Positions 12 to 24,820 of a stretch of DNA of 64,000 bases are shown here, piece after piece. The stretch is from the IMG/VR virus record IMGVR_UViG_3300045988_112808; one strand, given 5' to 3'. The DNA is from a virus. Each line of letters begins with the position of its first letter. Positions within the stretch are counted from its first letter, which is position 1. The position numbers and the translations under genes were made by a program. The notes beneath the pieces are model-generated. The model was not told where the DNA came from. It saw only the letters and a program-made list of their open reading frames with translations, and searched no databases.

Positions 12-3000
12 ATGGCATCTGAGGGAAGTTACAAAGCTGCGTTAAACACTAACATGGATAAGTTTGTAGGTGATCTTGACCAGCAAATAGACATGCTTCT
101 TCCCCATTATTACAAGAAAGAGGTAGAAGATTATAATTTCGGTCAGAAGCTTTTTAAGGATACCGGTAATTTCTTATGGAATGACGTCCTTGGTAATGGT
201 ATGTCTTTTACCGTAGGAGCCATGATATCAGCGTACATGACCGGAGGACTTGGGGTTGGATCATTGGGCAATATAGGCGCTAAATTAGGTGGAAGAATCG
301 GAGCTAAGTTGGCAGCAAGGCAAGCTGCCAATAGGGGCATAGGAAACCTTAAAAGCGTGTTTAACGACTATGTAAGAAAAGGAGTTGCCACCGGAAGAAA
401 TGTAGGGGAGGCGGCTAAGACCATGACGTTGCTGGCTACCAGTGCCGGATTCGAGTCATCGGTTGAAGCAAATTCTTTTATGAAGCAATCCGAGTCTGAT
501 TTCAAGGATTATTATCGTAAGATTTATGGTCGTGATCCCAATGCAGAGGAAATGGCTGTTTTTCGTAATTCTAATGCTGATGTAGGTAGTGCTATATTTG
601 CCGCCAATATGGGTATAGTAGGATTATCCAACTGGCTTCTTTTTGGTAAGTATATAGGGTTAGGAGGCAAGGCTATACCTGGTTTGGAAAAGAAGCTCAA
701 CAAGCATTTATTTGGATTAGGGACGGAAGTTGCGAAGCCGGGAGAGATGGCTATTAAAATAACCAATCCCAATATAGGACAGAAGATAGCAGGCAATGTT
801 TTCAATATCATGAAAAGACCGGTATCTGAAGGATTATGGGAAGAAGGATCTCAAGGTGCTGTCCAGAATACGGCTGAGGAATATGTTAAGTCAAGATATG
901 ACAATGTTGCTATGAACGGGGCCGTTGATGTTCTTGATGCTATTTCTGAAGGATTTAAAAAACAATATACGTCTAAAGAAGGATGGACTGAAATAGGAAT
1001 CGGTGCTATTATCGGTTCTTTGTTTGGTATGAGGGAAGGCCTCTTTGGAGTGAAAGAGTATAGTAATAATCAGATATTGCTGGAAAGGCAAGTAAATGAA
1101 TATAACAAAGCATCTTCTAATCTTAATACGGCGGCTTTGAATACGTTGAAAAAGTCAATGAGTTTAGGGCCTCAAGTTCGTTCCGATGCTCAGTCTATGA
1201 CCGGCAAGGAGCTTGATGATGCAATGTTTGAAAAGATGTCGATTGACAACCAAATGGGAACCTTAGAGGATTCGGCTGAAAATTTCAGGCAGATGGTTGA
1301 TATGATGCCTATTTCGGAAATAGCCGAAGCCAACGGAATGTCTTTGGAAGAGGCAAAGAAATACAAGGATTCTATTATTGATAATTATAATAATCGTCTT
1401 TCGGATTTCAGATCTGCCCAGAGTTTTGCCGAAGATCTTATAGGTGATGATTCTAAGATTGAGTTTAGAAAATACGTGGCTCGTAATGCTTTTCTTGGTC
1501 TTCAATCGGAATCAAGAATGAAAGACATAGCTTCTGTCATAGAAACGCTTTCGGGTCAGCCTCGCGTGGCATATGCACTAAGTACGTTCTCCCGGCTGTC
1601 GGACAGGGCAAGGGAGCGGGCGATGGCTATCCGTGGCATACGGTCAAGGATAGAAGAGCTTGAATCCGAAATAGAAGATCTTGCTACTCGTCCTCGTAAC
1701 GTAGATGGAAAAGACCCACAAGCTGAATCCATACAACGAAAAACCAAAGAATTGGAAGATCTTAGAACCAATTATAACAATTCGTTGTCTGAGTTATCAA
1801 CGTTAATAGGAAAAGAGTTTTCGATAGAAGAGTTGGTAAGTAAAACCGAATCTGTTTTATCATCGCCTCTTTCTCCCATAAGTTCACAAGATGTAATAGA
1901 AGCCTATGATACGCTTGTGGCTTTTGATGATTATTTTAATGTAAAATCAAGACAGGAAAAGAAGTTTACAGCCAAAGACAAAGCCATGAGATCCTTGGTA
2001 AATGAATACCGAAGGAGTTTGATGGACTATAGGAATATGAATAACTTCTTGTCTAAGATGCTTGATAAAAGATTCTTAGCTGAGGAAAACAGGGGATTTT
2101 CAAAAGCGCTGTCTTCTCTATGGTCTACTCCTTATAAGGGGGATGATAAGGTTCCTGATTTTGCAGAGCCTAATAAAGTTGGTGAATATGACACTGATGA
2201 GGTAGTAGATCAAGCTGTGTCAGAAGGTAAGATTTCGGAAGACGAAGCTTGGACTATCAAGGCTTTTATGCATGCTCTTGATAAAGTAAGGGAAGATAGG
2301 ATGAAGGAAGCAGAAGACGATATAAAAGAGTCACCGCTTACGGAGTCTGTATCGGATGAAGATTATGAGGCTGCTATGGATAATCCTATTATGGTTCCGG
2401 TTGTAAGGCAGTCTATAATTGATAAACTATATACAGGTAATGCCGATCTTCTTACTGCGAGAGAAAAAGATGTGTATGATAAATACAAACAAGATTTTGA
2501 TGATTATGTATCGTCTTTAGGTGATAGTCCTGTTAATCTCATTAAATCATTATCTGAAAAGGCTGACAGGCTTACAAGTCCGAGATCAGTATATGAGGAA
2601 AATAAAGCTATTATTGATATGGCTAAGTCTAATTTGGAGCCAGATCAAAGAAAGGAGCTTGATGATGCTATTTCTTCGTATGTTGATATAATGAACAGAC
2701 GGGATAAAGGGGAGAAGGTTGACGAAGATAAGCTTGCCGATTCGGTATTTACCATAGAAGATCTTGGCCAAGTTGGAAACATCACAGATCTCCTTCCTTA
2801 TATCGAACAAAACAGGATTATTGATAAAGGTCGTATTTCCGAATCTACGTTAAGTAATTTTGGGGAGGATGATGCTAATATAGATTCTCTTGTAAATGAG
2901 TTAGACGAATCTGATAATACACCTGGAGCTAACATAGATAGTGCCCAGAATCCAGAGACGTTGATGGTAAGAAGAATCTCCAATGATGGCAATGAAAGGT

Positions 3001-20327: not shown

Positions 20328-20464
20328 ACGAAGAATATCGGACTTGCATTGTTTTTGTATGATTCCAATATGTTATATTAGCATCGTCAAAGAGTAGATT
20401 GTACGTTTTTTTGTTCTTACTTGAAAGATTATGTAGGTTTAATTTTTTCTGAAATTGTTTTCTT

Positions 20465-20507
20465 ACCGGTTCTCAGTCAGAGATGATAGAGAACCGGTTT
20501 CTTTTAT
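20465..20507 (+). terminator. intrinsic terminator after giant ORF 2
   Basis: ACCGGTTCTC/GAGAACCGGT 10-bp stem then TTCTTTTAT. Confidence 0.7.
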
Positions 20508-20541
20508 GTTGTCAATTATTGCTATCTTGCAAACAAAAATC

Positions 20542-21159
20542 ATGAGACGAAGATTTCAAATAGGGATGGGGGTAAATCCCTCGCTTATAATCAATAAAGG
20601 CATATACATCCAACATGTAGATGGAGGATTATATACAAAAGAAAATTGGTCTAATAAAGGATATTCCAATGATCTATGCAATGGAATAGCTCTTGTAGAT
20701 AAAGTGTGTTTTGTTATAGCCACCGAATATATTGGCACATTTCGTTGGGGTAAGGATGGAAGAGTAGATAATGTATTTGCACAAAATAGTTCTTATATGG
20801 AGACCGTTAAAAAGGATTATTGGGGGCGTGAAAATCAGAATGCGTATCTTGAATATGATACCAGTAATGAAAATTACGCTTTTAATAAAGCTAATAGCTA
20901 TTTATTTAAAAATGGTCAAAATGGATATGTAGGTGGCGCCGGAGAGTTTTTTTTGATATCATTGTATGCGAATGAAATAAACGAATGCTTTTTAATGGTA
21001 GGAGGTACGATAATGAGTAATAAAATGTGGACATCCACTCAATCTACACAATTTACCTATTCGTGGTATTATGATATAAACATCCAAGGGGATCATTTGG
21101 ATACAAGTACAAGGAGTAATCCACGTTATGTCCGCCCCTTTACTGAATTAATTTTATGA
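20542..21159 (+). CDS. hypothetical protein, MRRRF family member 2 (start moved from 20455 to ATG 20542 downstream of terminator)
   Basis: ATGAGACGAAGATTT start; terminator hairpin lies inside the longer track ORF. Confidence 0.65.
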   Translation: MRRRFQIGMGVNPSLIINKGIYIQHVDGGLYTKENWSNKGYSNDLCNGIALVDKVCFVIATEYIGTFRWGKDGRVDNVFAQNSSYMETVKKDYWGRENQNAYLEYDTSNENYAFNKANSYLFKNGQNGYVGGAGEFFLISLYANEINECFLMVGGTIMSNKMWTSTQSTQFTYSWYYDINIQGDHLDTSTRSNPRYVRPFTELIL

Positions 21160-21163
21160 AATT

Positions 21164-21901
21164 ATGAGAAGAAGATTTGAAAATAATGCTAAACTATATG
21201 AGTATAAGATAGTTAGCGATTGTATAGGGGGGGAGGTAATCGTAGAAGGAAAGAAAGTAGGCACCATTCCACAGGGCGGGCAATTTATCTTTCTGTCTAA
21301 AAAAGAACGGCTGGATTCCATAAGTGTCCAAGGCGGTGTTCCAATGGAAGATAGGCAAGAGATCGATAATAGGGTTGATACGACAGAGGAATTGCTTGAA
21401 CAGGATTCGGTGGTTCTTGCTGTTGCTTTAACAACCTCTCCTTATTATGGATTTAGAGTAAGTGTGATAGCACCTGATGAGTTTACGCTAAGAACAACCA
21501 ATAGGATTAATAGAACCTTTTTAATAACAAGCTTTACTCCACCTGCTGCTATATACGGTGTAAACTTTAGTGATCCTATTGTCCTTAATTATGATAGTTA
21601 CCAATATAAGATGCCAGATCTTGTAATTGATGGACCTCATGATAGAATAGTTAGGGCAGATCCTAATTTTACTTGGACTACAAGATGTACAGATGCCGAC
21701 TTTACACCTTTGCCATATCCAGAATCATGGTCTGGCCAAGGTTTAAATTCTATGTTCTTATCAGAAATGAAACGTCTTACTCCTGGTGATCATCATGTAT
21801 CATATACAGCTTATATTAAATTGGACTTGATAGATGATGGCGGAAGTAAAGTTCATACTGAATATCTGGTATTAGAAAAAACACTTAATTTTACGATATG
21901 A
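21164..21901 (+). CDS. hypothetical protein, MRRRF family member 3
   Basis: ORF track; ATGAGAAGAAGATTT start. Confidence 0.7.
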   Translation: MRRRFENNAKLYEYKIVSDCIGGEVIVEGKKVGTIPQGGQFIFLSKKERLDSISVQGGVPMEDRQEIDNRVDTTEELLEQDSVVLAVALTTSPYYGFRVSVIAPDEFTLRTTNRINRTFLITSFTPPAAIYGVNFSDPIVLNYDSYQYKMPDLVIDGPHDRIVRADPNFTWTTRCTDADFTPLPYPESWSGQGLNSMFLSEMKRLTPGDHHVSYTAYIKLDLIDDGGSKVHTEYLVLEKTLNFTI

Positions 21902-21990: not shown

Positions 21991-22479
21991 CTAAGCATTA
22001 ACTTCATGACCTCCCCTATCCGTGAAAACTAAACCAATACCTTCTATGATATGTCCTACTACAGGAGCTTTGTCAAATTCCTCCTTCGTAGCCCAAGTAG
22101 CATTATCAGGCATCAGATCCTTGAATGCGTCCGAAACATCACCTTGACACCAGCAGTTATTTGATGTAACAATGCCTTTCCCTTCGATATTGATATACAT
22201 TTTTCTTCCACCACATCCAAGGCTGTTCCATCCGCTCGGTACGTTTTCCACCATAGGCTTAAGCACCCAGCTTACACCGTCTATCCTAACCCATCCCGGA
22301 TCGTCTTTGTGCTTGTCGTACAAGTTTTGCCAAAAAGAGCATTCGTAGCACCATCCCTTGTCTTCCATGATAGTTCTTATCTCACACCTTTCAAATCCAT
22401 CTGCATCCAACGTGTGCGGAGAATGAGGCTGGTGAGGGGTGCCACATTTTGGACATACGAGTTTTAAATTATCTTTCAT
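21991..22479 (-). CDS. hypothetical zinc-ribbon protein
   Basis: N-terminal CPKCG...H..H motif. Confidence 0.7.
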   Translation of the reverse strand: MKDNLKLVCPKCGTPHQPHSPHTLDADGFERCEIRTIMEDKGWCYECSFWQNLYDKHKDDPGWVRIDGVSWVLKPMVENVPSGWNSLGCGGRKMYINIEGKGIVTSNNCWCQGDVSDAFKDLMPDNATWATKEEFDKAPVVGHIIEGIGLVFTDRGGHEVNA

Positions 22480-22684
22480 ATTGCTTTACTTTTACGATTT
22501 TAATAGAATCACCAATATTGTATTCTCCTTGGTATCCAACGAATTTTATAATTCTATTATTTTTAAATATTGAAACTCTTTCGTCTTCACCATAATATAT
22601 CACACGTCCACCATCTAAAGGAAGTAGATCATATATAACCCATCCTTCATTAACCTGATCATCAATAAAATAAAATACCTCATA
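22469..22684 (-). other. 71-codon open frame without start codon, in frame with upstream gene 22691..22882 across TGA-AAA-TAA
   Basis: protein-like translation (YEVFYFIDDQVNEGWVIYDLLPLDGGRVIYYGEDERVSIF...) with no ATG/GTG/TTG in first 28 codons. Confidence 0.3.
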
Positions 22685-22690
22685 TTATTT

Positions 22691-22882
22691 TCAACATAAA
22701 AATTTGTAACCTGGTTTTACTGCCTCTGCTTCTTCTTTTGTATCAAACATTAAGGTAGTGACAGCTCCTATGCCTTCACAAACGTAAGATACTTTTACCC
22801 ACCACCTGAAAATTCCCGATCCGTAATCATCATAATACGGCTCGGAAAGGACCTCTTCTACGTACCCATCTAAGTAATTCAT
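22691..22882 (-). CDS. hypothetical protein
   Basis: ORF track. Confidence 0.6.
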   Translation of the reverse strand: MNYLDGYVEEVLSEPYYDDYGSGIFRWWVKVSYVCEGIGAVTTLMFDTKEEAEAVKPGYKFLC

Positions 22883-23632: not shown

Positions 23633-24820
23633 TCACAAAATATTTATTCTAACCGGATTAAACACAAATCCACTATCGATTATCTTTCCAATGAAAGAAT
23701 CACCGATTACTTTTCTTGCTATTCCAATTGCTCCATTAATATCTGCATTGATCAGCTTCCCAATAGAACTTTGAAACAATCCGCGTTTCTTCCTTCTACC
23801 TAAGTAGGATTCTTGTTTCTTTAGAGGTTCAAAAGCAAGATGGTCAATCTTTGATGTGTAAGATTCCTCATGAGTAATTACCTCTATCCCTAAAAGATTT
23901 GCTTTGTAAACAATCTTATCAATCAATTTAGAATGAGGAATAGAAACAAAATGTTGGTTATTCCTTTTACCGATATTTATCTCGTTTTTCCATTCTTTGT
24001 TTAATCCAATGATGATTGTTCCTATATTGTTAGATTTACAAAAGTCTACAATGTATCTACTGATTTTATGCAATTTGTCTTCTATCCAACAATTTCTAAA
24101 CAAAGTAATTTTTCTTATTCTATTTGAAGTTCCCTTATTACCAACAAAAGACATCAACTTAGCTTTCTTCTTATTGTACCACTGATTTACTGATTTCATA
24201 ACCCGTCCGTTTATAATGAAAGAATTAACTACATTACTAATACATGAACATAAATTATTCAATCCTAAATCAATCGAAAGAAAATTGTCTTTGTTTAAAC
24301 CAAGATCAGTTTCCTTTCTTTCATAAACTACCTCTACTACATAACATGTAGCTTGAGGGATTATTCTAACTTGTTTTAGTTTGTCTTTCTTTACATTTGT
24401 TTTGATAGGTTTGATTATATCTTTAACAAAATAAATACAATTATCACCCTTTACCCTACAATTGCAGTTGGTGAAAACAACCATGTTTTGTTTCTTACCT
24501 TGTTTGTATGATGGAAGGTGAGGTCTATGATTTCCGTATTTAGAAGGATTCTTTTCAAAATCCTTCTTGAGTTTTATCCAGGATTTTATGTTTTTAAATA
24601 CCTGTTTAATCACCTGTTGGGATACATGATTAGGTAAATTCCTGAAATCGAATTGGTTTTCTTTGCAAAGTTTGTTTGATAAATCAAATTCCTTTAAATA
24701 GTTACCTGAAAAGATTCCTTGACGAATGTTGTAAAGAACATAATTATATAACAAGCCGGATTTGAAGCAAATATCCTCAAACCGGTTGTCTTTAACTATA
24801 TGCCTTTCAACTAATCTCAT
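23633..24820 (-). CDS. tnpB: TnpB-like RuvC-fold protein lacking the zinc finger
   Basis: Conserved LPNHVSQQVIKQVFKNIKSW helix; RuvC-I SIDLGLNN; RuvC-III NADINGAIGIA. No Cys-based zinc finger between RuvC-II and RuvC-III. Confidence 0.8.
   Translation of the reverse strand: MRLVERHIVKDNRFEDICFKSGLLYNYVLYNIRQGIFSGNYLKEFDLSNKLCKENQFDFRNLPNHVSQQVIKQVFKNIKSWIKLKKDFEKNPSKYGNHRPHLPSYKQGKKQNMVVFTNCNCRVKGDNCIYFVKDIIKPIKTNVKKDKLKQVRIIPQATCYVVEVVYERKETDLGLNKDNFLSIDLGLNNLCSCISNVVNSFIINGRVMKSVNQWYNKKKAKLMSFVGNKGTSNRIRKITLFRNCWIEDKLHKISRYIVDFCKSNNIGTIIIGLNKEWKNEINIGKRNNQHFVSIPHSKLIDKIVYKANLLGIEVITHEESYTSKIDHLAFEPLKKQESYLGRRKKRGLFQSSIGKLINADINGAIGIARKVIGDSFIGKIIDSGFVFNPVRINIL

Follow-up and report, generated by a model that had tools for sequence, protein, structure and literature searches.

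A start-less open frame in a phage genome fragment as a probable recent deletion pseudogene of a conserved lipoprotein gene

The Open Frame and Its Neighbors

Why does a run of 71 sense codons without an early start codon lie directly behind a complete gene, and in the same frame as that gene? The question is raised by a locus in the IMG/VR virus record IMGVR_UViG_3300045988_112808, of which a stretch of 64,000 nucleotides was analyzed (referred to here as the window). In this part of the window, every gene lies on the minus strand. A 63-aa gene (22691..22882), which belongs to PHROG 8110 with unknown function, ends in TGA (22693..22691), followed by AAA (22690..22688) and TAA (22687..22685). 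Beyond these two stop codons the frame of the 63-aa gene is open again from 22684 to 22472, until it is closed by another TAA (22471..22469). Its translation starts with YEVFYFIDDQVNEGW and ends with KQYER (all 71 residues: YEVFYFIDDQVNEGWVIYDLLPLDGGRVIYYGEDERVSIFKNNRIIKFVGYQGEYNIGDSIKIVKVKQYER). Reading the minus strand confirmed this arrangement, which had been described in an earlier note on this DNA. The first ATG, GTG, or TTG in the open frame is the GTG at 22603. This is codon 28, hence the start-less stretch exists but spans 27 codons and not the 28 counted before.

The downstream neighbor is a 162-aa gene with CxxC motifs (21991..22479). Its ATG (22479..22477) lies inside the end of the open frame, which gives an overlap of 11 nt and agrees with the overlap reported earlier. 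Two smaller ORFs are found at the same site, both on the minus strand. The ORF of 22 aa in the neighboring frame (22683..22615), to which attention had already been drawn, is real; it starts with an ATG, encodes MRYFILLM plus 14 out-of-frame residues and stops at TAG (22617..22615). The ORF of 44 aa (22469..22603) starts from the GTG at 22603, with GGTGGA just upstream. It is the sole piece of the open frame that can be started canonically, it has no signal peptide, and it is what gene callers output on frameshifted alleles.

The length of the frame is not informative in itself. The probability of at least 71 codons per stop-to-stop interval is about 0.5–0.8%, the same order of magnitude as the 1–2 percent estimated before. 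Across six frames, approximately 65 intervals of at least 71 codons occur in the shuffled 64-kb window versus 220 in the real one, so length alone is no evidence of coding. It is homology that identifies the open frame as real coding sequence, since codons 8–71 are identical to residues 18–81 of an 81-aa protein encoded in related phages (P0112; 64/64).

The Intact Gene in Related Phages

A megablast comparison with GenBank phages gave csAssE-Sib (OR575929, 151 kb, human gut), with 92.7% DNA identity. In its genome, an annotated CDS of 82 aa begins 7 nt after the stop of the 63-aa gene, and the encoded protein starts with MRYFVLLMALVLSSCSHDDSQVNNGWVIYDL. Pairwise alignment places the ATG of this CDS at window position 22683, the opening ATG of the 22-aa ORF. 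The TGA-AAA-TAA sequence is conserved between both, and the window is devoid of a sequence block just after codon 8. More than 100 related human-gut phage contigs of about 150 kb, csAssE-Sib included, retain these stops and have a separate gene of 77–82 aa at that ATG. In the relatives, the full protein is encoded in one frame. The comparison with related phages, which the earlier note had proposed as a check, was the decisive one.

The intact protein is a lipoprotein precursor, in which MRYFILLMTLVLSSC is followed by SNDDQVN. In a bacterial lipoprotein precursor, the substrate of signal peptidase II (SPase II), the signal peptide is closed by a lipobox, [LVI][ASTVI][GAS]C, which comes after a positive n-region and a hydrophobic h-region. 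The intact relatives show all these elements: M-R/K-Y, then FILLMTLVL, then LSS/C. At the N-terminus of the protein, the homologues conserve MRYF(I/V)LLM. A protein search gave 395 homologues, and the 120 listed have a size between 76 and 108 aa; they all carry the lipobox LSSC (120/120), and their contigs typically measure about 150 kb and at most about 254 kb. The sequence types include SHDDS...RPLQGGRVMYY as well as SNDDQ...LLPLDGGRVIYY.

P0112 is indexed in 238 blocks of the assembly collection. For alignment with the window we used, besides csAssE-Sib, eight metagenomic contigs of 71–153 kb encoding P0112 (L002–L009) and two contigs encoding the 44-aa GTG product (L010 and L011). A distant branch of the family (P0142–P0150) has 25–32% identity and keeps the Cys, with LSGC as lipobox. 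In contigs of about 144 kb, its members lie downstream of a dGTP diphosphohydrolase gene, among small genes in a similar arrangement. The family is narrow, as a HMMER search of 1.84 billion representatives gave 24 matches, mostly truncated or fused variants. One of these (P0139, 449 aa, repetitive) looks spurious.

A Deletion of 31 bp Between Short Direct Repeats

Over approximately 270 bp, the sole difference between the window and seven of the eight P0112 contigs (L002–L006, L008, and L009) is the absence of 31 bases in the window. The eighth contig (L007) differs by the same 31 bases and two substitutions. The bases that are present in the relatives and absent in the window are TGATGACACTTGTGTTATCATCATGTTCGAA. 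The intact allele reads TTTTAT, TGATGA, CACTTGTGTTATCATCATGTTCGAA, TGATGA, TCAGG, while the window reads TTTTAT, TGATGA, TCAGG. What has been lost is thus one of two direct TGATGA repeats, each 6 bp long, along with the 25 bp that separate them. According to the alignment and the indel listing, the single remaining copy is located at 22659..22664 (minus strand), and the junction sequence in the window is TTTTATTGATGATCAGG.

The lost segment encodes ...TLVLSSCSN(D), which comprises the last part of the hydrophobic core and the lipobox with the Cys to be lipidated. As 31 cannot be divided by three, the loss shifts the frame as well. What survives at the 5′ end (22660..22683, minus strand) is the ATG with seven further codons (MRYFILLM), corresponding to the n-region and the start of the h-region, and its DNA is identical to that of L002–L009. 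The first seven codons of the open frame (YEVFYFI, 22684..22664) are an out-of-frame reading of this signal-peptide start. Codons 8–71 (DDQVNEGW...KQYER, 22663..22472) are intact codons of the mature domain, with DNA identical to L002–L006, L008, and L009. With no lipobox Cys and a shifted frame, the window’s own allele no longer has the features of a lipoprotein precursor and, judged from its sequence, cannot encode a lipoprotein.

The deleted state is the derived one, as all 120 listed homologues and the distant branch have the signal peptide and the Cys without exception. The event must be very recent, given that the remnant has acquired zero substitutions. The deleted segment contains a hairpin with an 8-bp stem (ATCATCAT/ATGATGAT) of not unusual energy (z = −0.87), which is a possible aid to slippage.

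With high confidence, we read the region as a very recent deletion pseudogene of a conserved gene for an 81-aa lipoprotein precursor (22683..22469, minus strand). The ancestral precursor would have consisted of the signal peptide MRYFILLMTLVLSS, the lipidated Cys15 and a presumably beta-rich mature domain of about 66 aa. A 31-bp deletion between TGATGA repeats that are 31 bp apart is the signature of a slipped-strand or microhomology-mediated deletion. The loss of the end of the hydrophobic core and of the lipobox Cys, together with the frame shift, leaves the authentic ATG with a peptide of 22 aa (MRYFILLM and 14 wrong residues), and the untouched mature-domain codons persist as a start-less frame overlapping the next gene. 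We infer that the window allele is a null allele. The frame that it shares with the 63-aa gene is a by-product of the 31-bp deletion, as both frames differ in the intact relatives. Translational coupling to the 162-aa gene is probably lost too, because the frame of the authentic ATG now ends about 136 nt upstream of the ATG of the 162-aa gene.

Pseudogenization had been among the options of the earlier note, and rightly so, but it was attributed to the wrong gene, namely a larger version of the 63-aa gene. For annotation, the region should be labeled a frameshifted lipoprotein pseudogene, neither an extension of the 63-aa gene nor a ‘hypothetical protein’ of 44 or 22 aa.

Alternative Explanations

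The 31-bp gap might stem from assembly or consensus calling, with the true genome carrying the intact 81-aa gene. The junction is indeed unique to the window among the collections scanned: the exact 45-nt junction gave no matches in IMG/VR, the 22-nt junction gave none in the JGI metagenomes, and a gapped junction pattern with N{0,30} gave 40 matches in IMG/VR, none of them homologous to the locus. The absence of further decay in the remnant is also how an artefact would look. Against this, the window assembly is otherwise clean, with 3 mismatches and no gaps in 3,025 bp upstream in the comparison with its nearest relatives (L002 and L006). Over about 6.2 kb of these two contigs, the other indels are one in-frame difference of 3 bp and length changes in single-base runs. 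A loss of 31 bp bounded by 6-bp repeats is untypical of short-read or homopolymer error, and repeats of 6 bp are far below the k-mer sizes of assemblers. A real deletion is moreover unsurprising given the many other natural loss-of-function alleles of this gene (see below). We consider an artefact improbable and infer that the deletion is real biology.

Still less probable is a remnant that is expressed and functional, be it as a 44-aa cytoplasmic protein from the GTG at 22603, by a non-canonical start, or by frameshifting (−1 or +2) from the 22-aa ORF. Such a product would fit the intact frame, which still overlaps the ATG of the next gene at its end, and the GGTGGA upstream of the GTG; some relatives with ATA or ACG as start codon keep an otherwise intact ORF, so weak or non-canonical initiation may be tolerated. 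The recent deletion, with its zero substitutions, explains the intactness of the frame, and a product without lipobox and most of the signal peptide could not reach its normal compartment. In more than 100 relatives, one single frame covers the protein, signal peptide and invariant Cys included. The conserved two-frame architecture of programmed ribosomal frameshifting is absent, all intact relatives being single-frame, and inspection by eye gave no canonical X XXY YYZ slippery heptamer in 22683..22615. The earlier note had raised a frameshift from the 22-aa ORF and thereby named both halves of the broken gene correctly; what separates these halves is a genomic deletion of 31 bp and not a ribosomal event, and even a ribosome that changed frame would be unable to yield the normal product since the deletion removes the lipobox Cys. 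The non-canonical initiation that it also offered is not needed to explain the frame. In sum, there is no evidence for non-canonical initiation or programmed frameshifting at this locus.

A C-terminal extension of the 63-aa gene (22691..22882) into the open frame, split by a nonsense mutation or read through TGA-AAA-TAA, as the shared frame and the two stops one codon apart had suggested, can be dismissed with near certainty: both stops are identical in 11 of 11 aligned relatives (csAssE-Sib and ten metagenomic contigs), a stop ends the 63-aa gene at this point in every related contig examined, the IMG/VR contig L147 has TAA instead of TGA, the 63-aa product is called as its own gene in all relatives and matches a 59-position PHROG end to end, and the relatives’ downstream gene, 7 nt further, is in another frame with its own ATG and signal peptide. 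The same alignments rule out a readthrough or recoded extension, and the 63-aa gene stands as a separate gene outside the broken one.

Recurrent Loss of the Lipoprotein Gene

IMG/VR was scanned for loci with an intact signal-peptide region, which gave at least 103 homologous loci. Intact ORFs of 77–82 aa were found in 86 of them and two are cut by the locus end. Among the loci listed, 15 of the 101 assessable ones (about 15%) are disrupted. Judging from these sequences, the gene is broken in at least ten ways other than the deletion in the window, which brings the number of independent loss-of-function alleles to at least 11, the 31-bp deletion included.

The disruptions include point changes, insertions and deletions. 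A nonsense codon directly after the Cys is present in L124 and an early frameshift in L065. The start codon has changed from ATG to ATA in three loci (L121, L112, and L104) and from ATG to ACG in one (L147). In these four loci the start codon is near-cognate and the ORF is otherwise intact; they represent either very recent start losses or tolerated weak initiation. Two loci (L084 and L139) carry an insertion of 1.4 kb with a TnpB-like ORF at about codon 27. In another four (L128, L090, L079, and L063), there is an insertion of about 640 bp with an ORF of 164 aa. This cassette is located after codon ~40 and replaces about 50 bp; its 164-aa protein (METSRKLQKIDSLVLCEYIVKHYGSMSHLKLQKLLFYCDAYHLAYFG...) presumably resembles Panacea/SocA-type antitoxin domains. 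In L114 a deletion extends into the downstream gene.

Two further loci encode an in-frame fusion, in which the signal peptide and QVNxGWV are joined to the C-terminal two-thirds, approximately, of the 162-aa protein (L130, ~1903..1912; L134, ~2793). The fusions lie in different sequence backgrounds, and the equivalent window positions are ~22640 and ~22300. The lipoprotein gene and the 162-aa gene of the window each contain one copy of GGATGGGTTA, and the fusions probably arose by deletion between repeats of this type. Through such a fusion, a portion of a protein that otherwise looks cytoplasmic would be targeted to the membrane in lipoprotein form.

The two Logan contigs with the 44-aa GTG product (L010 and L011) have a deletion of a single T and not the 31-bp deletion. 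They originate from different runs and have different sequence backgrounds, but share this 1-nt deletion. We considered whether both are noisy assemblies, given the many gap openings in BLAST. As the alignment shows just a few homopolymer differences, the loss of this T is probably genuine. The representatives of 50%-identity clusters comprise additional forms with fusions and deletions.

So many independent disruptions indicate that the lipoprotein gene is dispensable. It is a hot spot for loss, of which the window allele is one more example.

Variable Sites in the Neighborhood

Other sites close to the lipoprotein gene vary as well. A 245-aa gene (21164..21901, plus strand), located two genes downstream of a 2,137-aa gene, contains a poly-G tract at about codon 22 (21226..21235), which reads G7AGG in the window. 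Among related contigs the tract is G9 in 13, G10 in nine, and G8, G8AGG, and G7AGG in two each, and the gene calls vary accordingly (245, 226, or 184 aa). The 245-aa gene is a candidate phase-variable gene, switched on and off by slipped-strand mispairing; homopolymer sequencing error is the alternative explanation for the variable tract length. An ORF with a TTG start (20455..21159, plus strand) contains two tracts that vary in relatives, G5 at ~20822..20826 and T8 at ~20946..20953. For the former, 53 loci have G5 and three single loci have G6, G8, and G10, respectively; the latter has 7, 8, or 9 bases.

The window shares a 395-aa TnpB/OrfB_IS605 gene (23633..24820, minus strand) with L002, L006, and L010. 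At the corresponding site, csAssE-Sib, L003–L005, and L007–L009 lack this gene and have a cytosine methyltransferase gene or nothing instead. This presence/absence pattern is an insertion polymorphism of an IS200/605-type element. The element inside the lipoprotein gene of L084 and L139 is related to the TnpB element of the window, with 66% nucleotide identity.

Putative Host and Function of the Intact Protein

By helicase, the nearest cultured relatives are Cellulophaga phages phi17:2 and phi4:1 and Bacteroides phage BS-TP2 (34–37% aa identity). These sequences suggest that the host may be a member of the Bacteroidota. The TnpB element was compared with genome contigs as a further host clue and gave only distant matches (35–41% identity) to unrelated MAGs.

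The lipoprotein gene closes a minus-strand block of genes for nucleotide metabolism, DNA modification (methylase), and helicase functions. Between it and the end of the 2,137-aa gene, which runs convergently, lie about 2 kb with variable small genes; the csAssE-Sib homologue of the 2,137-aa gene is annotated as ‘structural protein.’ No usable match for the lipoprotein was found in Pfam, PHROGs, PADLOC, or the PDB sequences. Two AlphaFold runs gave models of low confidence (pLDDT 41.8 and 51.7), which suggest a small all-beta mature domain. With such a low-confidence model, Foldseek gave weak matches to small beta-barrels (TOBE/MOP-like) in the PDB, all with E ≥ 0.04, and a single family member in BFVD. 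The latter (A0A8S5MGZ9) is named ‘TRAF PROTEIN, TRAO PROTEIN, TRAN ADHESION, BACTERIAL SECRETION.’ The csAssE-Sib homologue (OR575929, 111607..111855) is labeled ‘cell adhesive protein,’ and a literature search gave no paper on this phage. The BFVD name looks copied from a PDB title, and we guess that the csAssE-Sib label may have a similar origin; ‘adhesion’ names should not be propagated for this family.

Taken together, the intact protein appears to be an accessory outer-membrane lipoprotein, possibly surface-exposed, that would be made in the infected Bacteroidota host. As for its role, receptor masking or superinfection exclusion is the most plausible one, proposed here tentatively and with low confidence by analogy to T5 Llp and Cor; the proposal is based on the size, the lipidation signal, the gene position and the frequent natural loss. 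Conservation of the family extends throughout a widespread lineage of human-gut phages of ~150 kb, and its lipidation signal is invariant, yet the gene is often broken. This combination points to a dispensable host-interaction gene and a candidate exclusion factor. More speculatively, and rather doubtful as a whole, the gene could represent, in human-gut Bacteroidota phages of ~150 kb, a lipoprotein family not described before, the small and possibly surface-exported members of which act in exclusion or receptor masking and are repeatedly switched off, driven by a cost-benefit trade-off or fluctuating selection and not by mere neutrality. If true, the loss alleles would constitute a natural knock-out series for function tests. 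The window allele itself is unremarkable, an ordinary and very young deletion pseudogene of a conserved, uncharacterized lipoprotein gene, and its biological interest is modest; only the recurrent natural inactivation of the family is worth following.

Comparison With Known Systems

Small lipoproteins are known from several phage and bacterial systems with which the intact protein can be compared. The o-spanins (Rz1-like) are outer-membrane lipoproteins of lysis cassettes; they are proline-rich and their genes are located next to, or embedded in, the i-spanin gene. The intact protein is likewise a small phage-encoded lipoprotein, but mature P0112 has one Pro in about 66 residues and is predicted to be beta-rich, and no i-spanin, holin, or endolysin gene is adjacent to or embeds its gene. 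An o-spanin role is thus unlikely, considering the single proline, the missing lysis-gene context and the frequent loss.

The predicted cleavage site is followed by C-S-[H/N]-D-D in 105 of the 120 homologues listed (of 395), which invites comparison with the lipoprotein export signal (LES) of Bacteroidota. This signal is CS(D/E)2 in B. thetaiotaomicron and K-(D/E)2 or Q-A-(D/E)2 in C. canimorsus (PMC6222051, PMC5080379). The phage proteins have an acidic pair at +4/+5, which may correspond to Q-A-(D/E)2 by our own reading, as the papers state no positions. Relative to the B. thetaiotaomicron motif (+3/+4), this pair is displaced from the Cys by one additional position, and the distant branch is variable with a weaker acidic content.

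T5 Llp is a superinfection-exclusion lipoprotein that masks the receptor (PMC9586334), and Cor of phi80 and N15 belongs with Llp to the superinfection-exclusion lipoproteins (PMC9586334; bioRxiv 10.64898/2026.03.26.714494). Like these, the intact relatives encode a small lipoprotein with a mature part of about 65 aa, from a non-structural gene, dispensable for phage growth, that lies in a non-structural block near the end of a tail/structural module. The differences are that sequence similarity was not detectable in a profile search of PDB sequences (E ≤ 10), that Foldseek against the PDB gave no fold match below E 0.04 and no Llp (with a model of pLDDT 52), and that the host is probably a member of the Bacteroidota and not E. 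coli. The likeness to Llp and Cor, a class characterized by binding and blocking of the phage’s own receptor and by early expression, is best taken as a working analogy and not as membership.

The broken gene in the window, finally, compares well with pseudogenes that arise by deletion between short direct repeats. One repeat copy and 25 bp have been lost, a length that is not a multiple of three, and the codons behind the gap remain intact while no longer sharing the frame of the start, as in such pseudogenes; the event in the window differs merely in being very young, with no substitutions in the remnant.
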